Part shown: in pieces, positions 858 through 64,000 of the stretch
Position numbering within the stretch: the stretch's first letter is position 1
How the letters are laid out: each line of letters opens with the position of its first letter
Virus record (IMG/VR): IMGVR_UViG_3300028392_002123
DNA: 64,000 nt
Strand: one strand, 5' to 3'
Source: a virus
Lineage: Duplodnaviria; Caudoviricetes
Notes under the pieces: generated by a model
The model's input: the letters and a program-made list of their open reading frames with translations, nothing else
Database searches by the model: none
Told to the model about the DNA's origin: nothing
Position numbers and translations under genes: made by a program

Positions 858-1730
858 TTTGTCTTTAAATTCTCGTAACTCTCTAGCGCCCAAGCCTGCA
901 TCTAAGCCCAGGGCTTTTTCGTCATTGCCGTATTTTTCAACCAGTGCCTGCCATTTAGACTGACTAATCAAACTCTTAACTAGTTGGTATTCCCCTGCAC
1001 TTAGTTTAACTGAATTAACAGCATAGTCTTCAAATGCTTGACATGCCTCTGGGAACAATGGTTTAACTAGGTTATACATGGCACCAGCAAATTCCCGGAT
1101 CTCCCACTGTGCATGTGGATCCATACGCAAGCGAGCCATGTGTAAAAAATTCTTCAAGTTAGCTTTCCAATACAATTCTGTATATCCGCCTACTGGAAGC
1201 ACACTTCTAGCCAACTCACGAGCAAGACCACTATCGTCTTTGCCTAGTAAACTTGTATACTCTTTATAAGCATTAAAGAAACTACGTTGGAAGGCATGTT
1301 GTACTCCACGTTTTTCTTCAAAGCCCCATTCGCTGTCTTCACGGCCTTGTTTATTAGTTGTACTTTGCTTTTGGATTTGTTCTAATTCAGGAATGTAAAA
1401 CTCATCTGTGAGCACACTATATCGAGCACTATATTCGTTCATGCTGGCTGTACGATGACGTACAAGTTGTCGCATAACGAAGATAGGAAGTTTAATATGG
1501 AACTTTACTTCGCACATTTCAAATGGTGTAGTATGTTCGTGACGCATTAGATAACGAATTAAGTTTCTATCGTCTTGAACTTGTTTTGTACCGGCACCAT
1601 AGCTGACACGAGCGGCCTGCACTATTGCGCTGTCACTGCCCATGTGATCAACTAGACCAACGAATCCGTGATCTAGTACTGGAAGATATTTTTTATCTTC
1701 CTCAAAATTAATTTCTGATTTAACTGTCAT
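846..1730 (-). CDS. thyX: FAD-dependent thymidylate synthase
   Basis: ThyX signature RHRTASMNEYSARY, AARVSY, HTTPFE, ELARSVLP, LRMDPHAQWEIR. Confidence 0.97.
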   Translation of the reverse strand: MTVKSEINFEEDKKYLPVLDHGFVGLVDHMGSDSAIVQAARVSYGAGTKQVQDDRNLIRYLMRHEHTTPFEMCEVKFHIKLPIFVMRQLVRHRTASMNEYSARYSVLTDEFYIPELEQIQKQSTTNKQGREDSEWGFEEKRGVQHAFQRSFFNAYKEYTSLLGKDDSGLARELARSVLPVGGYTELYWKANLKNFLHMARLRMDPHAQWEIREFAGAMYNLVKPLFPEACQAFEDYAVNSVKLSAGEYQLVKSLISQSKWQALVEKYGNDEKALGLDAGLGARELREFKDKLGL

Positions 1731-26394: not shown

Positions 26395-26631
26395 TTATTT
26401 GGTAAACAATTCTGCTTCTCGTTGTCGATTGGACAACATAGTGGGATCTTTTCGTCCATTTCGAACAGCCCATCTAAGAAATTCATCTGCGACATTTAAA
26501 TCGTTTTGATTAATTTTTTTAAGTATAGTACTGTTTTGAAAAAGTACTATACCAATGTCATCGGCCAAGCTGGTCAATGCTTGAAGTTGATCAGTTGTCA
26601 ACTCTACTTTAATTAAATTTTTTATCTGCAT
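26395..26631 (-). CDS. C-terminal half of a GH24 phage lysozyme (no catalytic N-terminal region)
   Basis: LTTDQLQALTSL...STILKKIN...DEFLRW...NRQREAELF; TGATG coupling to dps. Confidence 0.7.
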   Translation of the reverse strand: MQIKNLIKVELTTDQLQALTSLADDIGIVLFQNSTILKKINQNDLNVADEFLRWAVRNGRKDPTMLSNRQREAELFTK

Positions 26632-27152
26632 CAAGCTCTATTTAGCTTCAAGGTAGACGTTAACATCCATAGATGTTTGTCATGAGCATCTTGACGATCT
26701 GCCATTAAGTTAGCAAGGCCATGATTGCCCACTGCTTCAGCAAGTTCGTAACATCTGACCAAGCTGTCTAATACAACACTAGAATCATCTACTAACATCT
26801 GTATCATAGCACTGGCTGTTGGTATTTCAACTTGATCTTCTATTTCTGCTAGTTGACCGAATCTAGTAAAACTAGCTGGAGCATAAGCACCTAATGTGCG
26901 AACACGTTCTGCAATCGTATCTACACTACCATATACTTCTTCATAGATAGTGCTAAACAAAGCATGGTATTGTGGAAAGTTTGGACCTTCTACATTCCAG
27001 TGAAAGTTCTGTGCTTTAAGAGAAAATGCATATTCATTTGCTAAAACTATTTTGAGTGCTTGTACTAATTCATCCATACTAGATTCCTTTGAAATATTTA
27101 CATTATTTAAAGTATTATCTGTGTCATCGGCTTCAACAAAAGTATTATCCAT
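26631..27152 (-). CDS. dps: Dps/ferritin-like DNA starvation protein
   Basis: KAQNFHWNVEGPNF..YHALF, DTIAERVRTLG, DKHLWML. Confidence 0.93.
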   Translation of the reverse strand: MDNTFVEADDTDNTLNNVNISKESSMDELVQALKIVLANEYAFSLKAQNFHWNVEGPNFPQYHALFSTIYEEVYGSVDTIAERVRTLGAYAPASFTRFGQLAEIEDQVEIPTASAMIQMLVDDSSVVLDSLVRCYELAEAVGNHGLANLMADRQDAHDKHLWMLTSTLKLNRA

Positions 27153-28608
27153 TGCTTAACTCACGCTCAACTTGTTTAACCCAAGCACTGACATCGCTGG
27201 TACCTATTTCTTCTACATCACCTACAAAGTCGGCAACACCGTCAATGGCCTGCATAATTCTTTCAGGTCCGTATTTTAATAGTAAATCATGATGGCCGCT
27301 TAAGATACGACGAGTAATAGCACTGACCACTGGATTAACAGCGTCGTTGCTTTCTGGTACTATTTCTTCTTTCTTCAATGCCTGTCTGCCATATTTCAAT
27401 GATGGTAGAACCGAAGGATGCAATTTCTGTTGAATTATAGAAGCAACAAAAGAATTTTTCTTTTCTTTGTTTTCTTTATTGCCTTCCGCCACACCTTGTT
27501 CACTGTGTCTAATATCAGGATTATCAATTTGTTCTGCCACGCTGTTTAAGTGATCATTGGCCACAGTAATATAACTATACATCCAACCGTCTAGACTAGT
27601 ACCTTGTTCTAAAACTTGTTTGATCTTCATTATATTTTCAAGAATAGCATTTACTTCACCATGTGCCATGCCATCAATTTCTTGATCTTCTGTTACACCT
27701 TGCTGTTTGCGACGAGCAAGTTCGCGAGCAACTGCTTTTAACTGTTGAGCAAACACAGGACTTTGACCTTGTTCGTCTTTGTGACTATTCCATAATCTTT
27801 GTAATTTTTCTGTGGGAACCTTTGACAAGTCCGCATTTTCATAGACACTTTCGTTGTGACTCTTTTTATTTTTATTGTCCAAATAACCACGCTTGTTTAG
27901 TGTAGCCCAAGCAATGTTTTCTGCATCTTTACTGCTGTGGCCTGCTTGTTTTTCGCTTTTTGCAATGTGTCCGGCCATACGGTCTACTTTAGCACCTTCG
28001 CTGACAGGAGCGCCAGTTAATGACACAGTCCATGTTTTACCAGAACTAGCAGATTTTTTCTCTGCCCATTTTTTCATGTTGTTTAAATAATTACGTTCTT
28101 CCGCACTATCGGCATAACCTTTGCCTATGATAACTTTCCAAGGTCTGCCGTTGATACTAATTTGAATATTATTTTGTTCGTGACCTAGTTCGTGCTGTAG
28201 TTCTTGACGTTTGAAATCTTGTTTTTGTTGTGCGCCTAATTTAGGTGCGTTAGGATCTGCAAAACCATGATTGTAATCTGCTTCATCTAATTCTTCACTG
28301 TTACTGCTGGTAATCTTTTTAGCTTTGGGATCAACACCTTTGATCATATTTTCTTCTTCATCAGTGTAAGCATAAGCAAATGGTTTGTCGCTGATTTCAT
28401 CATCACTGCCATTGGTTTGTTGTTCACCATCGTGGCCAGCAACATCTTTACCAAACTTATAAAAACCATAGAACTGGTCTCCACTGAGTTCGTGCATGCC
28501 TTTGATCGCGGCCTTATGATCCTTGTGCATGCCTTCGCTCATTGCATGACCTAATCCAGTTTCATTTAGCCATGCATTGTGCTTGTTGGATAGATCATTG
28601 ATTTTCAT
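27145..28608 (-). CDS. Multi-module putative internal-head polyprotein
   Basis: Start MKINDL (ATGA-coupled); short modules separated by LNE, MSE, LDE, VSE, GVTE, GVAEG, VPE. Confidence 0.7.
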   Translation of the reverse strand: MKINDLSNKHNAWLNETGLGHAMSEGMHKDHKAAIKGMHELSGDQFYGFYKFGKDVAGHDGEQQTNGSDDEISDKPFAYAYTDEEENMIKGVDPKAKKITSSNSEELDEADYNHGFADPNAPKLGAQQKQDFKRQELQHELGHEQNNIQISINGRPWKVIIGKGYADSAEERNYLNNMKKWAEKKSASSGKTWTVSLTGAPVSEGAKVDRMAGHIAKSEKQAGHSSKDAENIAWATLNKRGYLDNKNKKSHNESVYENADLSKVPTEKLQRLWNSHKDEQGQSPVFAQQLKAVARELARRKQQGVTEDQEIDGMAHGEVNAILENIMKIKQVLEQGTSLDGWMYSYITVANDHLNSVAEQIDNPDIRHSEQGVAEGNKENKEKKNSFVASIIQQKLHPSVLPSLKYGRQALKKEEIVPESNDAVNPVVSAITRRILSGHHDLLLKYGPERIMQAIDGVADFVGDVEEIGTSDVSAWVKQVERELSNG

Positions 28609-29690
28609 TTTTTGGCTCCAGTGTTGATACCACCTTGCCATTTCTTTTCACGATCCCATTTAACTCCCATGGCACGTTCTCTACGATTAGTACCTGCCTT
28701 GTCTAAACGATCGTCATCATGGTCTTTTTCGCTGCCGCCGTAGTTATCTGGATTAGCATGATGCTTTAAACCTGTGGCAGTTGGCTCGATGCGACCTTCT
28801 GCAATACCGCGTAGGCTGTCAATCCATTCACGAACTTTCTTGGGACGACCACGACCACGTTTTGGTGCATTGGCATCTGGTAGTGCATGTTTACGTGGAC
28901 GACCACGGCCGCGTTTGGTTGCATTAGCATCTGGTTCTGGACGAGTGCGTGGACGACCACGGCCGCGTTTTTCTGTAGCGTCGCTGGCAGGCGCTACACG
29001 TTTTTTCTTTCCAGGCTTTTCGTTGCCCCATTCATCATAGTTGTCTTCGTCATCATTGACTTTGTCACTTCGATAACCGTATTTCTTACCAACGTTGCGT
29101 TCGCTTTCTGGATCTTTGGCATTTTTCTTCATTGCGCCTTGCATACCTTTAAGCAAGTTCATGTCAAGACCTTCGTGCAAACTATCAAAAATTCCATTTA
29201 ATGCATTCAGGGAAGTTGCTTCTGCAGGACGATCCATGTCCATGCCTATTTGCATACCACCGCCTAGATGTGCATCTAATTGTTGTGTTACCCATTCGTA
29301 GGGATCACCTGTACGTGCCTTGGAAATGCCATATGGCATTTCACCATGCAACATGTAATAGTCAAACAATGCTTCATACAAGTCATCGGCTAATTCATCA
29401 CCCATTTTAAAGTCTTTGACTTCTTTGGGGAAACGACTTAAAATGTGTTCCAGTGTTTCTGTAGTTTCGTTGAGTTGGCCTAGTCCCTGTACAAATGCAT
29501 CATGTGTGCCTTGGTCTAAACTGGATTCATATAAACCGTAAACTTCTTTAACTTCCTTGGATTCTAATACTAATAGTTCTGTTCCTGCAAGAATAGTAGC
29601 GCCGGTGTTATAACGATGTGCTTCTACGATTTTTTTAATGTTGACACGCCCTTGGTGTGCATCATTGTCGAACATTTCAAATAGTTTCAT
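28605..29690 (-). CDS. Multi-module protein with three AT-hooks
   Basis: KRGRGRPR x2 and KRGRGRPK; leader MKLFEMFD. Confidence 0.8.
   Translation of the reverse strand: MKLFEMFDNDAHQGRVNIKKIVEAHRYNTGATILAGTELLVLESKEVKEVYGLYESSLDQGTHDAFVQGLGQLNETTETLEHILSRFPKEVKDFKMGDELADDLYEALFDYYMLHGEMPYGISKARTGDPYEWVTQQLDAHLGGGMQIGMDMDRPAEATSLNALNGIFDSLHEGLDMNLLKGMQGAMKKNAKDPESERNVGKKYGYRSDKVNDDEDNYDEWGNEKPGKKKRVAPASDATEKRGRGRPRTRPEPDANATKRGRGRPRKHALPDANAPKRGRGRPKKVREWIDSLRGIAEGRIEPTATGLKHHANPDNYGGSEKDHDDDRLDKAGTNRRERAMGVKWDREKKWQGGINTGAKK
28843..28970 (-). repeat. Three AT-hook-coding direct repeats
   Basis: cgtggacgaccacggccgcgttt at 28894-28916 and 28948-28970; variant at 28843-28862. Confidence 0.85.
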
Positions 29691-29701
29691 AATATTAACC
29701 T

Positions 29702-29887
29702 TTATTTGTTTTCAAGAACATTCTTTACCATACGAGGTTTACTAATGTCTGTGGATTCTTTTTTGGCCCTTTTGCGGGGCATATTGCGTTTCATAGGTAC
29801 AGAAAATATGTTTCCAGCTGGCGCGGCAGCAACAGCACCGCTGGCAGTAATACCCATGTCCTCGGCAATAATTTCTTTTATTTTCAT
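29702..29887 (-). CDS. Small basic protein with CTS-like leader
   Basis: MKIKEIIAE-D; ATAAATA at 29893-29899 upstream. Confidence 0.7.
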   Translation of the reverse strand: MKIKEIIAEDMGITASGAVAAAPAGNIFSVPMKRNMPRKRAKKESTDISKPRMVKNVLENK

Positions 29888-29922
29888 AGTATTATTTATC
29901 CAATATTAATCAATATTGAAAA

Positions 29923-31236
29923 TTATTCAATGCTGGCCAACTCAGCTAGAACAGGACCTTTTTCAATGTAATTCCTGCGAACTTTGCCGTTGTTTTCTGT
30001 TTTGTGTCTAACAGTGAGGAAAATCTTACCTGAGTTCTTGTCAATGATATCTACTCTTGGATTCTTAGTAGATTCATTGTAGACGCTGTCTAAGTTTATT
30101 TGTTTAAGTTTCTTGGCCAGTTGACTGAATTTAAGAACTTTATAATGACCGCTTTCAAAGCTTACTAGTTCTATGCTGGGGTCATTTAACGTGGCAAAAT
30201 AATCAATGCCATTGATAAATTTACGAACATACATATATTCTTCGTCGTCATAGTCACCACTGAGTAACTGCTTGAGCAACATATCTGCTTGTCTGTAAAT
30301 AAATTCTATGGCAGCATCTGCGCCCTGATCCTGATATATTTCATTGTATTCAGCTTCATAGGAATCTATCAAGATACCAAACTTTGCCCACAGTTCTTTC
30401 ATTTTACTAAATTCACTGCCACCCACTTGTCCCATTTGATCGCTGCCTGCTTTTAAGCTGATGTTTAGTTTACGTTTGTCAACACGACCGGTTTTAGGAT
30501 CTGTTACATAAACTTCAACGTCTGTTTTACGAGTCTTTTCTCCACTGACTCCATCGCTGACCACATTAATAATGTCGGGTTTACCGTTCATAAAGAAATA
30601 CTCGCTGTACTCCTGTGCTCTAGTACTGTTGGCATAGGCCAGCGCACTGGCCAGCAAATCATTTAATAACGGACGTTTTTTTGGATCCATGATGTCTCTA
30701 TATGGAGCCGCTTTTAATCTTAGAGTGAACTGTATTTTATCATTTACCACAGTACGACCTTTGTCTTTTACTTCTATGCTGTAGTTGTCTTCGCCGGTGT
30801 TTTTTAATTGATCTATTACTGCCCATACTTCAGGACCACCAACGTTGCCAATACCACTGCTGACTCTAGCACTTAATTTGGCAAACATTGCCGCACCTAG
30901 AATACCTTCTGCAATTTCACCTCTGTTGGCCACTTTATCTGCGGTAAGTCCAGTGCCGCCAAATTCTGCTGTTTTAGCAAAGCTTGACAGTGGTTTAAGT
31001 CCCTTGTTAGTCTGCACACTGATGGCACCGCGTAGTGTACCTTCATCGGCTAGCTGTTGTAGTCTCTCTGCTTCTTCGGGTTTGATCTTTACTTTACTGC
31101 CATCAACTAATTCAAACGTGCCGTTGTCTGTGATTTTAGCGATAAGAATGCCTAACTTTTCATAGTTACGTTTGGCCAACTCCGCTGGCGACAAATTAGA
31201 AGCTTCTAACAGTGATTTTATTTCAAGTAATCTCAT
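29923..31236 (-). CDS. Putative PD-(D/E)xK restriction-endonuclease-fold protein with CTS-like leader
   Basis: NRGEIAEG helix, KTDVEV...NISLK; leader MRLLEIKSLLE. Confidence 0.55.
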   Translation of the reverse strand: MRLLEIKSLLEASNLSPAELAKRNYEKLGILIAKITDNGTFELVDGSKVKIKPEEAERLQQLADEGTLRGAISVQTNKGLKPLSSFAKTAEFGGTGLTADKVANRGEIAEGILGAAMFAKLSARVSSGIGNVGGPEVWAVIDQLKNTGEDNYSIEVKDKGRTVVNDKIQFTLRLKAAPYRDIMDPKKRPLLNDLLASALAYANSTRAQEYSEYFFMNGKPDIINVVSDGVSGEKTRKTDVEVYVTDPKTGRVDKRKLNISLKAGSDQMGQVGGSEFSKMKELWAKFGILIDSYEAEYNEIYQDQGADAAIEFIYRQADMLLKQLLSGDYDDEEYMYVRKFINGIDYFATLNDPSIELVSFESGHYKVLKFSQLAKKLKQINLDSVYNESTKNPRVDIIDKNSGKIFLTVRHKTENNGKVRRNYIEKGPVLAELASIE

Positions 31237-31991
31237 AAATCGTAATAATATTCCCTAGGACGATGATCAACCATAACTAAGTTTTTATATTTATCGATAC
31301 TTCTGTCCATTAGGTCAATGTATTTATTAACATTTAAGTTAGTATCAAGTGTCAAAATCCATAGTATTTTTTTATATTTTGGATCGTACTCACTGCCATG
31401 ATAAGTTCTAACGTTATTCCAAGCAAATGAATTTGTATCATTTAAATCAGGAAAATGCATGGTTTTCCAGGGTGCTTCATCTTCTCGTATCCACAATGTT
31501 TCTCTGGGATTTTCGTCATAGAGTTTAATACGCATGGCCATTGGACAATCTACTAAACTGTCATCATCCCTGTGGTTTAAAATTTTATCAGTGCTGGACC
31601 ACATACGCCATAGGCCTGGTGTTGTCAAAGGAAAATATTCCATTAGTTGATCTTTTAATTCAGGGAATGTACCAAACACATCAACAACATGATTAGTCCA
31701 TACTTCGTCAACTTCTTGTGCGTTAATCGTTTTAAAATGACTGTTATAAACTCCATCTGGATTGGCTATGTTTGCTCTCTTTTTTGTCGCTACAGCACTA
31801 TTATTAAAATACCAATCAACAAACTTTTCATGATCGTCGGCCTTGATGCAAGGAATATCAAAGGGAACATAAAAATACTTTCCGTATGATTTTTCTAATC
31901 CTTCTGCGACCAATGAACCAATAGTTTTTCTAATAGGATCAGCCGATCTTCCCGCTATTACTCTTTCGCGCTGACCTTCATACATAGGCAT
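31233..31991 (-). CDS. Hypothetical protein, possible cupin/oxygenase fold
   Basis: NHRD (HxD) and later FAWNNVRTYHGS. Confidence 0.5.
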   Translation of the reverse strand: MPMYEGQRERVIAGRSADPIRKTIGSLVAEGLEKSYGKYFYVPFDIPCIKADDHEKFVDWYFNNSAVATKKRANIANPDGVYNSHFKTINAQEVDEVWTNHVVDVFGTFPELKDQLMEYFPLTTPGLWRMWSSTDKILNHRDDDSLVDCPMAMRIKLYDENPRETLWIREDEAPWKTMHFPDLNDTNSFAWNNVRTYHGSEYDPKYKKILWILTLDTNLNVNKYIDLMDRSIDKYKNLVMVDHRPREYYYDL

Positions 31992-31994
31992 AAC

Positions 31995-34460
31995 TTAATC
32001 TCTATGTAAGTCTGGACGGTTGGCACTCAACCAAGCTTTGGCATTAGCTAAATCATCAAATACTTTGCGTGTGACTCCACTGCTGTCAATGACATGATAG
32101 CGAACTTCTGTGCTGTCGTCTATGCGCTTACGTGTAACACGTTTAATGCCAGGTTCACCTTCCCTAACTGAACGCATACCTTCATCCACGGCATCGACTG
32201 CTTGCCCTAGAGCACTGACACTTTCTTTTTTAGCTGTTTTAGGAAACTGTGTTCTCAGTACCTGTTTTAAAATTGCCTGTGCTTGGGGATTGTTGGCCGG
32301 CAACATTTCTCTATCTAAAGCATAATATGCCCATGTAGTATAGCTGTTACTTTCCACAGTATTAACACCTGCACTTATATCCACTGATATTAATCTTGCT
32401 ATAGATTTTATTTGTGGAACCAAGGTCACAGTATAAAATTTGTCAACGGCTGTATCCTGTGCTTTTTTCTTTCTATCTTCATTTCTAAATTTAGCAACTA
32501 ATTTTGTTTTTGCCAAGTTGCTGTTTGTTTCAATATTGCTTACTGTGTACTGTTTGCCAAACTGTTGTTTTACTATATCTTCAACTGTCTTGCTACGTGA
32601 TACATTCCATATGTAGAATTTAAGCACAGGCAACCCTTTTGTTCTAATAAAATTGGCCGCTGTGCTAGCTGTTGTATCGGATGTAATTTCTGGTTTGTCA
32701 CCGGCCAGTTTGACCAATTTGGTTTTATATTCATTGGCGTATAAATTAGGATCGCTGGCAATGATCATAGCACGAATAAAACGACCAGCAGTATTATATA
32801 TGCCCGAAAAATCTGCTAGGTAATTGCCGCCGGCATGTCTGAAACTAATGTATTTGCCATTGTAACTGATACTGGCAGTATGTTGACGACTATAAGAAGC
32901 CACAATACCCTGTAACATTTTTTCATCAACTGTGTTGGTCTGTCTGGGTTTGTCAAATACAGTGGATTGTTTTTTACCTACCTTAGTTTGTATTGCGTTG
33001 TCGTCACTGGTGGCCACTGCCGTGGATAAGTTTTTAGTCACGCTGTCCGCATATCTATTATTCTCACGACCAAAGTAACGTAGTACATACTGATCGCCTA
33101 GGAATACTGCCAACTTCAATACATCTAACTTTTGTGGTATACTGACGTTGATGTGCAGGCCTGTTGAATTATTAGTGTATAATTTAAGCTCTTGTGCTAT
33201 AGTATAAAACTTTTTAAGAGCGTCGATGGCAGTGGCCGCAGGCAATGGTGGGCTGACAATCTCAGCACTACTTTCTGTTTCTTCATCATTGGGAGATAAA
33301 CTTCCATCTGGTTCCACGTACCAATCAGTTAGGTTTTTATCTTCTTCGTGATAGTCATTGAATATGTTTACTTTTGCGCCCATGGCTGCTTGTACTGCTG
33401 TGGCTATTACCTTGGATGCTTTGCTGTAATTTTCATCTTCATCGTAGCTGTCCCAGTAATCGTCATCTTCTTCATCATAGTCATCCAATCTTAATAATTC
33501 CCATGCAGACTCGGGGTCAGTGTAAGTGAATAAATTATTAAAGTTTCTTTCTACTTGTGCTGGTGTTAATCCCAGTGCAAATCTAAAAAGTTGTGGCCAG
33601 CCAATGCGGCTTACCATTCTTAGTTCATTTCCAAGCATTTCTAATCTGCTGCCGCCTCTAGAATTAAAATACATTAAACGGCCTAGTCGATTAGCAAATG
33701 TTAGCTGTGTTTCAATACTTTTATTTGTGGGCATCGGGCCATGTTCTTGTTTATATTTTTTTAGGAATTTTTTTCTGTCTTCTTCGGGAATTTTATAATA
33801 TACTTCAAGCACAGAATCTAGAATACCTGAATTCATATATGCCTTAAATGCTTCCTGCATATTTTTATAACCCTTTGAAGTATCTTTTAATTTAAATACT
33901 GCATCAAAACTCACCGGCTGTAGATTATCAAAGTCTAGATTATCACTGCTGAACGGGCTGTGTTCATCCAAAGCGTCTGCAATTTTCTTAGGAGTCATTC
34001 CAGTATCTTCAGCGTCCTTTTCACTGCCACCCATGTTAACTGTTTCTGCAGGAATACATACTTCAAATTCAAAACCTACTAGCACACCCTTGTCCTGGCC
34101 TGTGCTGATAGCCTTGGCAAATTCTCCAGGATTCATAGGAGCTTCGTCTAGTTCTTCTTCTTTGGTCAATGACTTTAATTTGTTCTGCTTTAACCAACGC
34201 TCGTAGTCTGCTACACTTCTGAATTCTTTCTTCTTAACATTTTGCTTGTCATGTTGATCGAACCAAGATCTCATTTTACTAGTATCTGTTGGATCTTTGG
34301 CATTTTCATCGCCGGCAAAAAAGTCGCGCATGGTTGCCAAGCTGGCTTCTTCAACTGCTTGTCTTAGTGCAGATCTATGGTCATTGTTATTTTCTACAAC
34401 AGGTACCTGAACAGTATCTTCTTTTATTTCTTGCTTGTTTATAAAATTATTAAATCTCAT
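31995..34460 (-). CDS. Amidoligase (COOH-NH2 ligase type 2) polyprotein, paralog A
   Basis: GFEFEV; VEPDGSL; EIVSPPL; TNNSTGLHINVS; ISFRHAGG. Confidence 0.82.
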   Translation of the reverse strand: MRFNNFINKQEIKEDTVQVPVVENNNDHRSALRQAVEEASLATMRDFFAGDENAKDPTDTSKMRSWFDQHDKQNVKKKEFRSVADYERWLKQNKLKSLTKEEELDEAPMNPGEFAKAISTGQDKGVLVGFEFEVCIPAETVNMGGSEKDAEDTGMTPKKIADALDEHSPFSSDNLDFDNLQPVSFDAVFKLKDTSKGYKNMQEAFKAYMNSGILDSVLEVYYKIPEEDRKKFLKKYKQEHGPMPTNKSIETQLTFANRLGRLMYFNSRGGSRLEMLGNELRMVSRIGWPQLFRFALGLTPAQVERNFNNLFTYTDPESAWELLRLDDYDEEDDDYWDSYDEDENYSKASKVIATAVQAAMGAKVNIFNDYHEEDKNLTDWYVEPDGSLSPNDEETESSAEIVSPPLPAATAIDALKKFYTIAQELKLYTNNSTGLHINVSIPQKLDVLKLAVFLGDQYVLRYFGRENNRYADSVTKNLSTAVATSDDNAIQTKVGKKQSTVFDKPRQTNTVDEKMLQGIVASYSRQHTASISYNGKYISFRHAGGNYLADFSGIYNTAGRFIRAMIIASDPNLYANEYKTKLVKLAGDKPEITSDTTASTAANFIRTKGLPVLKFYIWNVSRSKTVEDIVKQQFGKQYTVSNIETNSNLAKTKLVAKFRNEDRKKKAQDTAVDKFYTVTLVPQIKSIARLISVDISAGVNTVESNSYTTWAYYALDREMLPANNPQAQAILKQVLRTQFPKTAKKESVSALGQAVDAVDEGMRSVREGEPGIKRVTRKRIDDSTEVRYHVIDSSGVTRKVFDDLANAKAWLSANRPDLHRD

Positions 34461-34470
34461 TGTTATTCCA

Positions 34471-36576
34471 TTATGCCATTACTGGATAAACTTCATAGTT
34501 ACCATCGAAGTTATTTTCTCTTGCCCATAGTGCGGCCAATCTGTTGGCATCAGCCTGACTATTACCCACACCACGGAATCTATATACTTCGCGTCCTAGA
34601 CCATCAACCACTCGCCACTGTCCTGTAAAGTTACCGGCCGGGGATGCATTATTATTGGTACTAATAGTTTGATCATTATTACCAACTGTGCCTGCGGGTT
34701 GTGGATTACTTGCAGGAGCTCCGGTTGGTTCAACTGCCTGGCCGCCAACATGCCTAATACCAAACATAGCAGTGGCCTGTCCGTGTTGCAGGAGATGTGG
34801 ACCCATTCTAATATAATCCTGTAAATGTTCTAATGCTGTTGCATCGTCACTGACAAATCCAGTCGGCACACGTTCTACACTATTACCAGTTAATTTATTA
34901 TAAATTTCATAGCGTGGCGTATTATCTGCTTGATCGTAGGGTCTAACTGGTTTTGCAGTAATGTTTGTAGCATTAGCCCAGTCTGGATATTCTGCTCGTC
35001 CTTTTTCGATAGCTTCTTCTTTGCTGGTAGCAACAACTTCAACACTGGCACCATAGCCAGGACGTCCCACACTCCACCAATATTTTGTACCTGTTGGACC
35101 TTTCTTTAGTTTACGCTGTAATTGTGCTTGTTTGACAAAACTACGTAGTGCGGCCTGTGGCATTTCACCAGCACTATACTTGGCAAAGTATTGAATTGTA
35201 TCTGTTGAATCGTTGCTGGGAGTTAATAATTTATAAAGTTTTTTAGCATATTCTTCTTTGTATTTTGTTTCATCACAGGCGGCATCCAAGGCCACAACAA
35301 AACGCAACAAGGTATTGGTAATATTTCCTTCGTCGGCAGCATACTCTCCCAGCCAATCTCCGCCAGGACTGCGGAATTCAATATATCCTGTTTTTGTGTT
35401 GATACTAGTATATTTGCTGGTAGCTCCACTGTGAATAACTTTGCCAGCCAAGGTCGCTAGACCCTGTTTCATTTTGTCCAGGATAATTGCTACATCATCA
35501 GGGCGTTGAACAATACGTTCTTTGACAATGTCCACAGCACTCTTACAGTATGTATTGCCCAGCCTGCCAAATTTTTCTAGAATGTATTTGTCACCCAACA
35601 ACAATGCTAGTTTCGTATAGTCTAGCTTTTCCATGCTAAAATCAGGAACACTGACGTTGATGTGTAGGCCAGTGCTGTCATTGGTATAACAACCTTTGTT
35701 ATTAGCCCAGTTAACAACTTTGTCCAAGTCCGACAACATTTCATCTAGGGGTAAAGGCGGGCTAACAAATTCCAGGCCGCCGTCACTGCTGTCGTCTGGA
35801 TCTAAACTGCTGTCTGGTTCTACTACATAGTGTCCTGCTTCTCTGCGGCCGCCGTGATATCTATCGCTGGCATTTACTGGACGTCCTATCTCTCGACTAA
35901 ATTCATCTGCTACATCATCAACACTGATACCAGATTCTTGACTATGATAATGCGGCCAATTAATATCATAGTTACTTTCAACATCGGACATATTTTCTAT
36001 GCCTTCGTGTTCCAACCAATCACTTTCTAAGTCAGCATTACTATAAAAATCATCACGGAAATCATCTTCGGCATCTTCGTACCATGGACTAATTTGATCT
36101 TCTATTACTTTGTCCGTGGCCTTGGCAAAATCTTCTTTTGTTGGTTCGGGATACTCGCCGTCTTCATTGTGTTCAAGTTCTAATATACCGGCAATATCTT
36201 CGGCATTGGCGTTTTCTTTTAACCATCGATAAATGACTTCGCTCATGTCCGAATCCCAACGATCGTGTACCTGTTCATCCAGCCATCCATGATAGTCTTC
36301 CTGCATCTTATCGCGAAGACGTTCTACGTCTCTGCGACCATTATAATCACCATCATAGAAAAAATCGTAGGCATCCTGAATACTGCGAATACCTTCGTCG
36401 CTGTCATAGTCTGGCTCAGGATATTCGTCGTTGTCTCCTTGACTGGCACCAGGAACAATCATTTCAAATTCCATGCCAGCACGAGCATCAATGGTAGCGG
36501 CTATTGTTTTTAAATTAGATGGACTCATGTTGATCTCATCCAAGCGTTGTTCGTTGATAACGTCTAATAATTTCAT
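34471..36576 (-). CDS. Amidoligase (COOH-NH2 ligase type 2) polyprotein, paralog B
   Basis: GMEFEM; VEPDSSL; LEFVSPPL; TNDSTGLHINVS; IEFRSPGG; leader MKLLDVINE. Confidence 0.85.
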   Translation of the reverse strand: MKLLDVINEQRLDEINMSPSNLKTIAATIDARAGMEFEMIVPGASQGDNDEYPEPDYDSDEGIRSIQDAYDFFYDGDYNGRRDVERLRDKMQEDYHGWLDEQVHDRWDSDMSEVIYRWLKENANAEDIAGILELEHNEDGEYPEPTKEDFAKATDKVIEDQISPWYEDAEDDFRDDFYSNADLESDWLEHEGIENMSDVESNYDINWPHYHSQESGISVDDVADEFSREIGRPVNASDRYHGGRREAGHYVVEPDSSLDPDDSSDGGLEFVSPPLPLDEMLSDLDKVVNWANNKGCYTNDSTGLHINVSVPDFSMEKLDYTKLALLLGDKYILEKFGRLGNTYCKSAVDIVKERIVQRPDDVAIILDKMKQGLATLAGKVIHSGATSKYTSINTKTGYIEFRSPGGDWLGEYAADEGNITNTLLRFVVALDAACDETKYKEEYAKKLYKLLTPSNDSTDTIQYFAKYSAGEMPQAALRSFVKQAQLQRKLKKGPTGTKYWWSVGRPGYGASVEVVATSKEEAIEKGRAEYPDWANATNITAKPVRPYDQADNTPRYEIYNKLTGNSVERVPTGFVSDDATALEHLQDYIRMGPHLLQHGQATAMFGIRHVGGQAVEPTGAPASNPQPAGTVGNNDQTISTNNNASPAGNFTGQWRVVDGLGREVYRFRGVGNSQADANRLAALWARENNFDGNYEVYPVMA

Positions 36577-39500
36577 TGCGGTTTCTTCCAAGCTTTTGCA
36601 GGAACATTCAGTGTCTTTTCTAAATGTTTAAGCGAAGCATTAATTAATGTATCTGAACTATCGCGTCCCGGTTGCCAGTACCAACGACCACTCTGTGTTT
36701 GTCTTAGTCCCATGGCTTTTAAATCAATGTGACTAAAACTGCCACCGCCACGACCTACATCAAAGAAGTATAGTGTATCAGCAGGATTGCCAGCACTTTC
36801 ATTTTTAGGTTTCTTATGATGCTTTTTCATGTTGATGGCTATAGCGGCCTGCTGTGCGGCATTACCTTCTTCTATGCTTTCATTGGGCACACAGTTATTA
36901 ACTCCGACACCGCCTTTGATCTTAGTGCCTTCTTTGTGCTTGCCTTTCCAGCACTTGGGATCTAATCTTTGTCGAACACTTTCGGCCATGCTGACATTAT
37001 TTTTTAGGTCTTTTGTAATTAACTGTAGTAATTCTTTGGCAGCACCATCGCCCCACTCTAGGCTTTTGATAATAGCGTGTGCGCCTTCCTTGCCTATTTG
37101 TTGAATAATATGCTGTAGTAATTCTCGAGTAACATGTGGTACACCTTTGGCATCACCTTCTGCCTCCGCCACACCCTCGCCTTCGTCTAAGTCCCACACG
37201 GTCCTCAATCCAGATCCGCCGTGATCGCTGAGTAATTCATCAATCATTTCGCTGACATGACTGTCTAATTTATGTTGTGCCGCTAGTCCGGCACGCTCAC
37301 CTTTGGTTACATAGATGCTGGCAACTTTCTTTGCGTTAGCAAAATCTTCGGGTTCATAGCCCAACTCATCGTTTTCAGCTTCATACTCGGGTATGTATTT
37401 TAATATCATTCGACCAATGGTTGGACCAGCATCTGATTCTGCAGTTTTGCCTTGAGCAATATTAGTAATTTGATTTATATCGTCAATTTGATTTGTATTA
37501 CCATTTGCGCCCATGCCTTGCCATACATTGATTTGGTATGCTGGTAGGCCAGTGGCCTGAAGACCGCGATTCATATCGGAAAAATATTTGTTGATGGCTG
37601 ACACGGTTTTAACTATCATAGCAGCCAGTTGCTTTTGATTGTGAGTAGTAAATTCTTTATTGGTATCGAAATACACCTCTGTATAGCCTTGCCCTTGGCC
37701 AGGCTCAACCAAATCCCATCCGTATTTTTGACCAATGACTGTTAATTGTTGTTCAATTCGATCAGGAGTAAATTTTAGGTCTTTTATCAACTGACCTGGA
37801 TCATCGGTGGTAGCAGGCAAGGCTCGGCCATTTACTGTAGCGCCACGAATCCGTTTAGATGGTTGCTCACTGGCATAACTGACTGCAACATATCCACTAA
37901 CAGGATCAGGAGTGTTCTTTTGAATAGCACCCATCATTTTTTGGAATTTTGGATCATCGGTTGCGGCTTCCGCCACACCTTGCTGACCAATTTGTACTAA
38001 CCATTCTAATTCATCGTCAGCATCTTTGACATCAAAGAATTTAACATTAGGAATCTTCTTGGCAGCAAACCATTTGTTGGCTACTTTAACCATAAGGGCA
38101 CGATGTTGTGGATCACGAACATCCGGCTCGTAGCCCCCTGTTAAGTTTGCCCATAACGCACTTGGATTACCATTGCGGTCATAACCTAATAGTTCACGCC
38201 ATTGTTGTTGTAATTGTTGTGGTACATACTGATCTAACTCTGTGTCACTCATCCACTCTTGACCAATGTCAACACCTTCCGCCACATTTTTTTTACCATA
38301 CCGTTGTAGTAAATCTTTACCTGTACTTAATTCAAATGCATCTTTTACATAAGGTCCTAAACGTTCAATAGCACGTTGTTCTATCTTAGGTAAATTTATT
38401 TTAGCATCTTGTATGTTATCATATTCCCCGTATAACACTACTGCACCATCCCAAGCCCATACATAATATTTGCTTGGATCAACATTATACTTACCGCCAT
38501 TAATAGTCTCGATGCCTTCCGCCACACCTTGCTTATAACTTGGTTGTGTAAGTTTAACCGGCGGCGCTTGAACTGCGGCTACTAATAATTTATTTCCAGC
38601 GGCAATAGCATTTTTTAATGCCTCATCTCTACTTGTGGCCACTTGACCAGCATCTTTGAACATAGCAGGATTGCGAACATTTACTGTGGGATTGGGCAAT
38701 GGTTTGTTGTTTATAAAATATTCTTTATTGTTGGCATTTTGTAATATCCACTTGTTTACCTCATACCTATCTTTTAAGAATTGTAGTTTGCCCTCTCCGT
38801 CTTTGCCATCAGTGGGGTCGAGTCCTGACTGAGTCAATTGCTGTAAAAATTTTCCTTGATTTTGTGGATAAGCATCCATATGTTGCACTAACAACCAAGC
38901 CGCATAAGGTGCCGCAGGATATGACCCTTTACCGTCCGCACCTTTGTCAGATAGTATTGTGTTTATATTTTGTTGTATATATGGCCAAACTTTAGCTTGG
39001 AAACCGGCTCGACGAGTAGGATCTTTAAATTGCTGATCTTGATTCATCCAGGCATTAAGTTGTTGTCGAATTTGGTTTGTATTTTGTTCCAAGCCTTCCG
39101 CCACACCTTCTGTTAGATCTTCTGCAGACCATGACTGATAGCTACGGCCATGCTCATCACCACTACGTATCACAAACACGCCGCCGTTGTCGTAGCCGCC
39201 TTCGTCTTCGCCGATTTCCCAGCCAGTGCGAGCCAGTATTTCTTCTATTTTTAACTGTGTGGCTTCGTCACCGTTCCACCACATACGAGCATACTTGTGT
39301 AAGATGTCATCTTCACCGTCACCGCCGCCATTGCCGGGCGCAAATTCATTTAATGAACTTTCACTGACAGGTGCTAGATATTGATCAAATACTTGTTTAA
39401 TTCTTTTTGGATCTGCGGCCCGGGGATAAAGCTGTTTAATAATGCCTAGTCTGCCAGCATCATCTGCTTCGGCATACATTGCACGTACTTGACTGCCGCT

Positions 39501-39959
39501 GTATACTTCTTCACCATTGACATCAAACACATGTTTCTTAGTAACAAACACATAACCGTGCTTGCTCAATGGTTCACATTCTGCAACACTATGAAATGGT
39601 TGATAGTAACCAGGCGTGCCATCTTTTTTGGTATAGGGCATAGGGTCGCGTTCACTGCGAACTATTACTAGAATATCTCTTTCGGGATTGAATTGTTCTG
39701 TGATTTCTCGTGGATTAATTGGCTGACGTACCTGTACAAAAGGATCTACCACGCCTGCTTGCTGTGCTAAAAATTGTTTGGCTTCAAAGGGAATAGGACG
39801 AGTCTTTGTATCATTGCTGGCCGCTACAAAGAACTTGGCATGTGGGAACTCTTGTTTGGCTTGAATATAACTGCTCATGTGTCCTTGATGAAAGGGCTGG
39901 AAACCACCGCCATATACTACGATTACCTGTGGTTGATCTTTTAATTCTAATAAACGCAT
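36573..39959 (-). CDS. 1128-aa polyprotein: N-terminal HxGH nucleotidyltransferase plus about 8 modules joined by VAE/VAEG linkers
   Basis: GGGFQPFHQGH, SGSQVR; five VAE linkers; DUF6624-like AAWLLVQHMD module; CWKG...NCVP module. Confidence 0.85.
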   Translation of the reverse strand: MRLLELKDQPQVIVVYGGGFQPFHQGHMSSYIQAKQEFPHAKFFVAASNDTKTRPIPFEAKQFLAQQAGVVDPFVQVRQPINPREITEQFNPERDILVIVRSERDPMPYTKKDGTPGYYQPFHSVAECEPLSKHGYVFVTKKHVFDVNGEEVYSGSQVRAMYAEADDAGRLGIIKQLYPRAADPKRIKQVFDQYLAPVSESSLNEFAPGNGGGDGEDDILHKYARMWWNGDEATQLKIEEILARTGWEIGEDEGGYDNGGVFVIRSGDEHGRSYQSWSAEDLTEGVAEGLEQNTNQIRQQLNAWMNQDQQFKDPTRRAGFQAKVWPYIQQNINTILSDKGADGKGSYPAAPYAAWLLVQHMDAYPQNQGKFLQQLTQSGLDPTDGKDGEGKLQFLKDRYEVNKWILQNANNKEYFINNKPLPNPTVNVRNPAMFKDAGQVATSRDEALKNAIAAGNKLLVAAVQAPPVKLTQPSYKQGVAEGIETINGGKYNVDPSKYYVWAWDGAVVLYGEYDNIQDAKINLPKIEQRAIERLGPYVKDAFELSTGKDLLQRYGKKNVAEGVDIGQEWMSDTELDQYVPQQLQQQWRELLGYDRNGNPSALWANLTGGYEPDVRDPQHRALMVKVANKWFAAKKIPNVKFFDVKDADDELEWLVQIGQQGVAEAATDDPKFQKMMGAIQKNTPDPVSGYVAVSYASEQPSKRIRGATVNGRALPATTDDPGQLIKDLKFTPDRIEQQLTVIGQKYGWDLVEPGQGQGYTEVYFDTNKEFTTHNQKQLAAMIVKTVSAINKYFSDMNRGLQATGLPAYQINVWQGMGANGNTNQIDDINQITNIAQGKTAESDAGPTIGRMILKYIPEYEAENDELGYEPEDFANAKKVASIYVTKGERAGLAAQHKLDSHVSEMIDELLSDHGGSGLRTVWDLDEGEGVAEAEGDAKGVPHVTRELLQHIIQQIGKEGAHAIIKSLEWGDGAAKELLQLITKDLKNNVSMAESVRQRLDPKCWKGKHKEGTKIKGGVGVNNCVPNESIEEGNAAQQAAIAINMKKHHKKPKNESAGNPADTLYFFDVGRGGGSFSHIDLKAMGLRQTQSGRWYWQPGRDSSDTLINASLKHLEKTLNVPAKAWKKPQ

Positions 39960-50873: not shown

Positions 50874-52798
50874 CTGCTGGCCACCTTAATAGGTTCTCCT
50901 GGCTTGACATGCATGGCGGCCTGCCAATCTCGTGCTTTTTGTTCACGATTTTTTTGTCCTTTTAAGCCAGGATTAATATTCTTTGTAACTTGTTTTGTAT
51001 TGTTAAAACTCTTAGTTCTAGGTCTAACAAACTGTATCCAATACCATATACTGCTCAGCGCGGCCGCTGTGGGTGTGGCCACTATTTCAGGTTTGGCAAC
51101 AAAATCCACAGGATGATTAATAAATTTAGAAATCCACTCTCCGGCTTTTTGATAATTATATTTTCCAGTTAACTGCAAATATCCTCGGCCATGATATTTT
51201 GCGCCATCGCCGGGTTTGTCGTTGCCCAATATTTTGGCCTTGGCTGGATTAAATCTTATATCATATTTCTTTGCAAATTGTTCAGGAGTGCCATATTCAT
51301 TCATGGTGTTAAAGTTATCACTTTCATGAGCACACTGAGCCATAAATGCCGCTAACTCTGCGGGATTTTTAATAAATTGTTTGGCCCATTTTAATAAAAA
51401 ATCTACCTTGGGATTATTAGCCACGGACTGTGGTTTAGTATCTGTTTTTGCCTGTGCGCCCAAGGCGCTTACTGTGGCGCCTCCGGCCATGCCTTTAAGG
51501 AATCCTCTGCGATCAATGTCTTCCCCTACATCTTGTTTTATTCTTACTAGGTCAAATCCAATATGGTCACCGGTATCATGTACATTTTTTAATTGATATC
51601 CCCAGGATGTAGCATAACGTTGAAGTAACTTTGAATATAAACTAATTCTACTGTCTTTTCCTTGTTCTTCGCCTTTGGCGCCGGTAAATGATATAAATCT
51701 CGGCTGTTCTTTTGTCGTTAGAAATTCTTGTATGGCACTTAATACTGTGGCAAAGATTCTCTGTGAATCACCGTCGCCAGTTGCATCTTGACTATTGTTT
51801 CTCCAAAATTCAACGGTGTACACATCATCATCTTCTTTATTGAACATGATACTTAAATTAGAACCGTCTGGTAATTTAGTATACGCATCGTGGTCACCAA
51901 ACTCCCCGTGTTCCCATTGAAGCGGATAGGGCTGATTAAAGGCTTCCTCCAGACTTTCAGGAGTCCAGGCCATGTTTTTACTGCCCTTGACTGTGGGTTT
52001 GAATCCCTGTCCCTTATAGAATTTTGTCAGTTTGGCCTGGCTTACCTGTCCTTTGTCCCAGGGATATAGTGTAAGACTTATATTATCTTCTCGGGCCAGC
52101 CGCTGTAGTTCCGCCATGGCGCGAGTACCCACTCCTTGACGCAGAGGATATGCTTGAAACCATTTGACTTCCACAGCATCTTTTTTGCTCATGCTGGGCA
52201 CTAGATCAAACATGGCAAACTGTTGTTGTTCACCTTCGCCCCATACCATAATATGATTATTTTGAAATGTATGCGGATACAAGTCATAGACCTTTTTAAT
52301 CCAGTCTTTGGCACGTTGAGGTACTGTTAGTTTTATAGTGTCTTCGGCTACATCATGATTCAGCGAATTTGCCAACTGAGATATAGGAACTCCCGCGGCC
52401 TTGTAACCACGTGCTATACGAGCAATATAAGTTTTACGAGGTCTAGTGCCTTCTAAGTGTTCTCTAGTCGCCGGAGTCATAGTGTACAATTCTGCTACAA
52501 CTTTATTGCCGTCAACGTATACTGGCACAGTTTTTCTATCATATAAATGAGGATAACCTTCTGTACGATCTAGTTCGGCCAACATATTTCTGTCCAAGGC
52601 CCATAGTACTCCTACAACTTCTTGACCTGCTTCGGGACGCACATTAGCATATTGAAACATTTCATATTCAAAGTTTTTAAGCACAGCGGTGCCTACAAAA
52701 TCAGCACCACGCATTATCTTAGGATCTGTTAGCATGCCATATGCAAAATAGTATATGGGTACTGCACCTGCTTCTATTAGAAAATCACTGGCTTTCAT
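50870..52798 (-). CDS. Polyprotein: GGCT + GNAT + unknown module + Tat signal + GH19 lysozyme
   Basis: Leader MKASDFLIE; YFAYG...LDRTEG (GGCT); RQGVG (GNAT); RRGFLK; FMAQCAHES, YHGRGYLQLTGKYNY (GH19). Confidence 0.88.
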   Translation of the reverse strand: MKASDFLIEAGAVPIYYFAYGMLTDPKIMRGADFVGTAVLKNFEYEMFQYANVRPEAGQEVVGVLWALDRNMLAELDRTEGYPHLYDRKTVPVYVDGNKVVAELYTMTPATREHLEGTRPRKTYIARIARGYKAAGVPISQLANSLNHDVAEDTIKLTVPQRAKDWIKKVYDLYPHTFQNNHIMVWGEGEQQQFAMFDLVPSMSKKDAVEVKWFQAYPLRQGVGTRAMAELQRLAREDNISLTLYPWDKGQVSQAKLTKFYKGQGFKPTVKGSKNMAWTPESLEEAFNQPYPLQWEHGEFGDHDAYTKLPDGSNLSIMFNKEDDDVYTVEFWRNNSQDATGDGDSQRIFATVLSAIQEFLTTKEQPRFISFTGAKGEEQGKDSRISLYSKLLQRYATSWGYQLKNVHDTGDHIGFDLVRIKQDVGEDIDRRGFLKGMAGGATVSALGAQAKTDTKPQSVANNPKVDFLLKWAKQFIKNPAELAAFMAQCAHESDNFNTMNEYGTPEQFAKKYDIRFNPAKAKILGNDKPGDGAKYHGRGYLQLTGKYNYQKAGEWISKFINHPVDFVAKPEIVATPTAAALSSIWYWIQFVRPRTKSFNNTKQVTKNINPGLKGQKNREQKARDWQAAMHVKPGEPIKVASR

Positions 52799-60532: not shown

Positions 60533-64000
<3,468 letters not shown>

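Follow-up and report, generated by a model that had tools for sequence, protein, structure and literature searches.

The internal proteins of bacteriophage T4 (IPI, IPII, IPIII and Alt) carry a capsid-targeting sequence (CTS) that is removed by the prohead protease gp21, an enzyme which cleaves after L/I-x-E (PMC9026906). Polyvalent proteins of phages and conjugative elements are built from 2–15 unrelated, shuffled domains, and for these proteins co-delivery with the DNA and processing into units have been predicted (Iyer, Burroughs, Anand, de Souza, Aravind 2017; PMC5512222). In the gp38 adhesins of T-even phages, exchanges in or near conserved glycine-rich motifs create chimeras (Tetart 1996, 1998; Trojet 2011; PMC3157838). 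Here, a 64,000-nucleotide (nt) stretch of the IMG/VR virus record IMGVR_UViG_3300028392_002123 (hereafter the window), from an uncultured jumbo phage of freshwater that belongs to the T4 superfamily, was analysed with a focus on a short GVAE-type linker that joins modules within long open reading frames (ORFs), above all in a protein of 1128 amino acids (aa), P0001, encoded on a 340,358-bp JGI freshwater contig. The reading put forward, with a probability of about 0.6, is that this linker does two jobs, serving both as an in-frame recombination junction and as a head-protease cleavage site.

The modular nature of these ORFs is apparent from their homologues. The 119 metagenomic proteins related to P0001 each cover 9–35% of it at 47–94% identity, and the domains found beside the shared part include GGCT, GNAT, zeta toxin, HD, sigma-70, LysM and amidoligase, with module order and number varying freely. 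On P0001 the ends of the BLASTP segments from these homologues pile up at aa 200-205 (after PVSE), 282-291, 481-483, 557-562, 659-664 and 929-939, and its five linkers read TEGVAEG, KQGVAEG, KNVAEG, QQGVAEA and GEGVAEA, with Val at aa 286, 479, 559, 662 and 930. The original prediction made for the window, that unrelated modules are joined in long ORFs and that composition switches at GVAE-type linkers in the 1128-aa ORF and in a shorter one, is borne out in that homology breakpoints coincide with the linkers and the ORFs are chains of independently evolving modules; the comparison of module order that it suggested shows the modules shuffled among relatives and flanked by quite different domains. 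The shorter ORF does contain a linker (EQGVAEG at aa 384), but its length, given as 488 aa, needs correction: counted from the first ATG it is 498 aa, and counted from Met12 it is 487 aa. Proposed boundaries at PVSE and GVTE are confirmed as well, homology ending after PVSE in P0001 and at PVSE (215), GVTE (318) and GVAEG (388) in the 498-aa ORF. The same holds for those proposed in the two ORFs at 49.5-52.8 kb, where homology pieces break at DVAE (157), SLEE (290) and DVGE (431) in the 647-aa ORF and at PITE and GVEE in the 447-aa ORF. Linkers had further been claimed for both amidoligase genes, and this claim is not supported: no GVAE-type linker was found in the two Amidoligase_2 ORFs and their LDE and LNE sites lie inside block-homologous regions. 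Since a bare [LIVM]-x-E occurs by chance about 20 times in a protein of 1100 aa, such sites were counted only where a homology breakpoint coincides.

The linker is conserved as DNA as well as peptide. One DNA sequence, (C)AAGGTGTGGCGGAAGG(C), is present at all six linkers of the window, between unrelated flanks. The 11-mer GTGTGGCGGAR, with at most one mismatch, occurs six times in the 64 kb, always at a linker, as against a mean of 1.07 in shuffled sequence, where none of 100 shuffles reached six; VAEG peptides of the window that are not linkers use different codons. Across the window and 56 related IMG/VR loci, background usage in long ORFs is 14% GTG among Val and 8% GCG among Ala codons; in the same set the VAE triplets of the motif are GTGGCGGAR in 44 of 55 cases, and in three more loci (ENA, JGI) every one of 18 GVAE copies is GGTGTGGC(G/A)GAR. 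The canonical linker DNA is found in at least 80% of the relatives' copies, and the exact 18-mer in more than 120 IMG/VR contigs (a lower bound), some of them 260-374 kb long. At the peptide level, 158 distinct instances give the consensus [E/K/Q]-Q-G-V-A-E-[G/A]. Because 272 of 273 relaxed DNA motifs, in the loci among the matches listed, are read as GVAE within the longest ORF, peptide and nucleotides are both held constant. Module 6 of locus L065 shares only 68% DNA identity with the window and yet both of its flanking motifs are still canonical, so that the motif is actively maintained and not merely young. In the complete relative G001, all seven DNA motifs fall inside one 4-kb stretch. 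The non-canonical boundaries (PVSE, DVAE, DVGE, GVEE and PITE) use ordinary codons, and a second DNA-conserved linker class at PVSE was considered and rejected, its codons being variable.

The linker DNA also coincides with the ends of exchanged segments. When the window and all loci were compared all against all, 86 of 213 distinct internal ends of matches with at least 90% identity (40%) lay within 15 nt of a motif, compared with 0.5% expected from motif density, and 22 matches of 167-484 nt were bounded by the motif on both sides. Individual modules that share 91-99% identity have both their ends precisely within the motif. A clear example is module 4 of P0001 (window 38276-38534), which is 98.8% identical to its counterpart in locus L009; the match starts inside AAGCAAGGTGTGGCGGAAGGC and ends inside AATGTGGCGGAAG, linker 2 forming its left and linker 3 its right end, and the sequences outside are unrelated. 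Against locus L066, three modules match at 90%, 80% and 75% and the remainder has no match; such unequal divergence among modules of one gene pair points to several separate exchange events. Contigs from four freshwater metagenomes (four studies) leave the window at motif edges and run into several different continuations, with the loose ends listed in Table 1. In one lake metagenome the summed contig depth over module 3 (38528-39095) reaches 226, compared with about 5 over the remainder of the gene, so that many different phage genomes in that sample must carry this module. Only loose-end positions and depth were used from the contig comparison; apparent motif-to-motif joints, which would suggest deletion variants, were discounted, as their shorter side of 19-25 letters is the motif itself. 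Together, these comparisons make it very probable that the linker is an in-frame recombination junction through which modules are exchanged, and the conservation of the linker DNA combined with this crossover role, which the original prediction had missed, has the strongest support and is what is newest in the finding.

A role of the linker nucleotides in RNA or translation, as a rare-codon pause, a Shine-Dalgarno-like aid to co-translational folding, an internal start or an RNA-processing signal, might be suggested by the G-rich, Shine-Dalgarno-like character of the motif and by the rarity of GTG and GCG in these genes. It is nevertheless highly improbable, given that other boundaries in the same genes use ordinary codons, that no start codon stands at a fixed distance downstream of the linkers, that a scan for sigma-70 promoters and terminators gave nothing at them, and that it leaves exchanged segments ending inside the motif unexplained. 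Rare-codon pausing as a general boundary rule was rejected outright on account of the common codons at other boundaries.

The second proposed function, cleavage, is drawn from the peptide side of the linker and from the leaders of the proteins that carry it. Diverged boundary copies in the alignments of modules 6 and 3 (34 and 19 rows) include GMAE, GLAE, DLAE, KITE, DISE, GIME and FAE, and nearly all rows retain a hydrophobic P3 and a Glu at P1. The P3 residue, Val with Met, Leu or Ile as variants, does not fit the phiKZ-type S/A/G-x-E; P1' is mostly Gly or Ala, and the conservation lies on the non-prime side. Structure prediction had been proposed as a check for disordered linkers, and AlphaFold models of modules 6 and 3 with their flanks indeed place all four motifs in segments with a predicted local distance difference test score (pLDDT) below 50 beside folded domains. 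Many homologues and several window ORFs begin with 9-residue leaders (MKFRDFIQE, MRAHEFIVE, MKSHEFIIE, MKASDFLIE) similar to the T4 CTS MKTYQEFIAE. In the window, leaders of this type head the 447-aa ORF, whose MRAHEFIVE is very near the T4 sequence, the 647-aa and 706-aa ORFs (MKASDFLIE and MKLLDVINE, each from the probable start at Met6) and the 424-aa DUF6267 protein, and looser forms are seen in P0001 and the 437-aa protein. The strict leader pattern is present in 24 of 111 GVAE ORFs compared with 70 of 1060 others (Fisher p = 1.5e-6), and the cytidylyltransferase-like module 1 occurs both with and without a CTS-like leader. Three complete relatives of about 350 kb (G001-G003) encode a Peptidase_S77 (gp21-type) protease and a Gp23-type capsid protein, the latter with QLLAE|SSAG upstream of its conserved core, where T4 has FLTE|AEIG. 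By analogy with T4, it is thus likely that the linker is cut by a gp21-type head protease after capsid targeting.

Cutting could alternatively be due to another protease, either of the host or a peptidase module present in some of the polyproteins, like the MPTase of classical polyvalent proteins, whether ahead of packaging or once the proteins have been ejected. Processing by peptidase domains of their own has been proposed for polyvalent proteins (PMC5512222), and the 7-residue consensus is longer than T4 gp21 needs. This is considered unlikely, as no peptidase domain came up in the cargo ORFs of the window when these were scanned against Pfam and PHROG, both whole and module by module, while the P3-P1 pattern fits gp21 specificity and the leaders fit the T4 CTS.

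The following route is proposed. The linker DNA, (G)CAAGGTGTGGCGGAAGGC, is a fixed sequence of 18-19 nt with a single reading frame, so that any two carrier genes can recombine there, by short-homology recombination or template switching, in mixed infection or between paralogues, and single modules are exchanged in frame. It is the copies with the exact linker DNA that spread, and the silent positions thereby remain fixed. An N-terminal T4-like capsid-targeting leader would then carry the polyprotein into the prohead, where the flexible hydrophobic-x-Glu linker would most likely be cut behind its Glu by a gp21-type prohead protease, which would release the modules as separate small internal or ejected proteins. 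The recombination step is shown by the comparison of sequences, and the cleavage and release steps are drawn from the analogy with T4.

Several observations weigh against this two-function reading. A length of 18 nt is short for classical homologous recombination. It is conceivable, but improbable, that the 18-19-nt junction is the recognition site of a dedicated phage enzyme, a homing-type nuclease or site-specific recombinase, which would cut or pair at the motif and drive an integron-like cassette exchange acting in frame on protein domains, the same sequence being read afterwards by the head protease. No DNA motif was found in the complete relative G002, nor the canonical QGVAEG in the capsid, scaffold and protease genes of the relatives, which implies that the extended motif is no general requirement of the protease. 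The low pLDDT values are partly expected near fragment ends, and the alignments are unrelated or uninformative past the motif. A tblastn search of P0001 against 50,697 phage records returned a single uncultured record, matching module 1 only, and no cultured relative. Finally, conservation of the DNA alone could keep the peptide constant without any protease. This last point leads to the explanation that the linker is an in-frame 'splice site' for recombination only, the proteins remaining intact, multi-domain and polyvalent. It would account for linker DNA conserved well beyond the needs of the peptide, for breakpoints falling in the motif, and for the lack of the canonical motif in known gp21 substrates of the relatives and in all of G002. 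It fits less well with boundary copies that have drifted in DNA but retain hydrophobic-x-Glu, with the PVSE, DVAE, DVGE, GVEE and PITE boundaries, which obey the same rule with ordinary codons, and with CTS-like leaders that likewise end in hydrophobic-x-Glu. It is therefore regarded as a minority possibility, doubtful but the foremost of the alternatives, and a linker that is both exchanged as DNA and cut as peptide is preferred.

Table 1. Coordinates of linkers, modules and genes in the window (nucleotide positions unless marked aa).
Feature	Position	Strand	Details
Linker 1, GVAEG	39093..39107 (P0001 aa 285-289)	minus	DNA GGTGTGGCGGAAGGC; pLDDT <50; contig loose ends at 39109
Linker 2, GVAEG	38514..38528 (P0001 aa 478-482)	minus	DNA as linker 1; loose ends 38513-38515, 38533
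Linker 3, NVAEG	38274..38288 (P0001 aa 558-562)	minus	DNA AATGTGGCGGAAGGT; loose end 38286
Linker 4, GVAEA	37965..37979 (P0001 aa 661-665)	minus	DNA GGTGTGGCGGAAGCC; loose ends 37967, 37986-37988; pLDDT <50 at model residues 15-20
Linker 5, GVAEA	37161..37175 (P0001 aa 929-933)	minus	DNA GGTGTGGCGGAGGCA; pLDDT <50 from model residue 280
Linker 6, GVAEG	27481..27495 (aa 383-387 of 498-aa ORF)	minus	DNA GGTGTGGCGGAAGGC
P0001 polyprotein, 1128 aa	36573..39959	minus	about 8 modules; N-terminus MRLLELK
P0001 module 1	aa 1-200		cytidylyltransferase-like, PF01467
P0001 modules 2-8	aa 203-284, 289-481, 482-559, 562-662, 665-932, 933-1057, 1058-1128		
Modular ORF, 498 aa	27145..28641	minus	homology pieces at about aa 119-217, 213-260, 302-388, 399-497
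Modular ORF, 447 aa	49530..50873	minus	leader MRAHEFIVE; boundaries PITE (248), GVEE (393) from homology breaks
Modular ORF, 647 aa	50870..52798	minus	gamma-glutamyl cyclotransferase, unknown module, GH19-type lysozyme
Amidoligase_2 protein, 821 aa	31995..34460	minus	without canonical linker
Amidoligase_2 protein, 706 aa from TTG start	34471..36576 (ORF 34471-36591)	minus	without canonical linker
Dps/ferritin-like gene	26631-27152	minus	
361-aa protein	28605..29690	minus	leader MKLFEMF; three tandem KRGRGRP(R/K) AT-hook-like repeats
437-aa protein	29923..31236	minus	phrog_3560; leader MRLLEIK
DUF6267 protein, 424 aa	39959..41233	minus	CTS-like leader MKINQIITE

The modules of the cargo polyproteins are 55-270 aa long, mutually unrelated and self-folding. 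Fold searches with modules 6 and 3 gave weak, inconsistent matches only (glutamine synthetase or cyclase/palm-like, TM score 0.2-0.36), and no function was assigned. Folding was done on single modules with their flanks instead of on MAFFT alignments of P0001, or of its three-module part, with homologue fragments, which were left unused as 69 of 89 fragments had anchored on the wrong copy of the motif. A basic mini-module (...AAQQAAIAINMKKHHKKPK...) at 36796-36985, corresponding to aa 992-1055 of P0001 and especially to 1029-1054, recurs with 80-89% DNA identity in over 40 loci that have nothing else in common, gives weak matches to phrog_4359, phrog_727 and phrog_9737, and may be the cassette that the family shares most widely. 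In the 647-aa ORF, the sequence directly after the DVGE boundary (51449-51525, about aa 431-455), DIDRRGFLKGMAGGATVSALGAQA, resembles a twin-arginine signal peptide placed mid-protein, before the GH19 lysozyme domain.

Every gene in this region is encoded on the minus strand, and the part from 27 to 53 kb is probably a block of capsid-packaged cargo genes, several of them encoding polyproteins. The family-B DNA polymerase (PolB) of the window has its closest GenBank phage relatives, at 44-47% identity, among T4-superfamily jumbo phages (Sinorhizobium Phosso, Agrobacterium Atu_ph07 and Rak2-like phages), and a Megablast search of the region against the 50,697 phage records gave zero matches. 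Other genes encode a Dps/ferritin-like protein, two Amidoligase_2 proteins, which are paralogues with 30% identity over about 340 aa, a DUF6267 protein, a GGCT-GH19 lysozyme fusion and tail fibres. The Dps/ferritin-like gene stands directly 3' of motif-bearing polyprotein genes in the window and in loci L064 (7411-7878), L065 (8128-8562), L027 and L030, a gene neighbourhood thus kept across several relatives. The 361-aa protein has a weak match to Pfam AT_hook (E = 0.01) and could be a DNA-bound or DNA-associated head protein. A 1131-aa tail-fibre protein (60533-63928) contains repeated D/N-V-A/T-E-G-x-N-L-Y-Y-T units, which use ordinary codons and are unrelated to the linker. In two of the complete relatives, putative homing endonuclease genes directly follow the capsid gene (L058 2649-3623 in G003 and L060 2671-3423 in G002); they were called by eye from their N-termini as GIY-YIG-like and HNH-like, and T4 has segD at the same position. 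The T4 late-promoter box TATAAATA is not enriched in the window, with 2 matches against 6.5 expected; expression timing can therefore not be deduced from it, and this phage probably has late promoters unlike the T4 ones.

If the proposed reading is true, this clade of phages has a natural standard protein connector, by which modules are inserted, removed and reordered in frame by recombination, and the same short sequence directs the head protease where to separate the product. This would explain the rapid diversification of the injected cargo of giant phages, probably for host takeover and counter-defence, and would supply a concrete, testable rule for where a large number of unannotated metagenomic proteins are cleaved, whose cargo repertoire could be catalogued by in silico cutting at the motif. 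It would also suggest a design rule by which several foreign proteins could be loaded into T4-type capsids from one gene. The exchange of modules, for which sequence evidence suffices, clearly exemplifies selection, or drive, at the silent codon positions in a linker. No publication describing the linker junction was found, and a full-text search for GVAEG gave no phage paper.

Among the systems with which the locus can be compared, the phiKZ-like giant phages (phiKZ, 201phi2-1, SPN3US) also package many head proteins that their prohead protease cuts after Glu, some of them repeatedly, but they belong to another lineage, their P3 residue is small (S/A/G-x-E) where Val, Leu, Ile or Met is found here, and neither a DNA-conserved junction nor module shuffling has been reported for their ejection proteins. 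In polymorphic toxins (VENN in CdiA, PxxxxDPxGL in Rhs) a short conserved motif likewise marks the point at which a C-terminal module is exchanged; these proteins are bacterial, and have one junction each, between a constant part and one toxin tip, with no chains of many modules. The gp38 adhesins resemble the present case in that short conserved motifs flank variable segments and breakpoints fall in the motifs. Their motifs, however, are the structural core of one domain and stand in fixed order, whereas here a flexible linker joins whole unrelated domains in any order and number.

With polyvalent proteins, P0001 and its homologues share the number of modules, about eight in P0001, the shuffled architectures, and a predicted delivery with the DNA followed by processing into units. 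They differ in that neither a zincin-like MPTase nor another peptidase hub turned up in the Pfam and PHROG scans, in that processing is proposed to be carried out by the head protease, and in that the joints are a defined short peptide and DNA motif, the word 'linker' not occurring in PMC5512222. The closest resemblance is to the T4 internal proteins. As in T4, the phage belongs to the T4 superfamily (PolB in the window, gp23-type capsid and gp21-type protease in relatives), leaders of 9-10 residues follow M-K/R-x-x-D/E-F-I/L-x-E with a proposed cut after hydrophobic-x-Glu, and the cargo is small, variable, non-essential-looking and different between related phages. In contrast to the single-domain T4 proteins, each of which has its own leader and is cut once or twice, the putative internal sites described here have a fixed 7-residue consensus and a fixed DNA sequence, and one leader heads a chain of up to about 10 modules.

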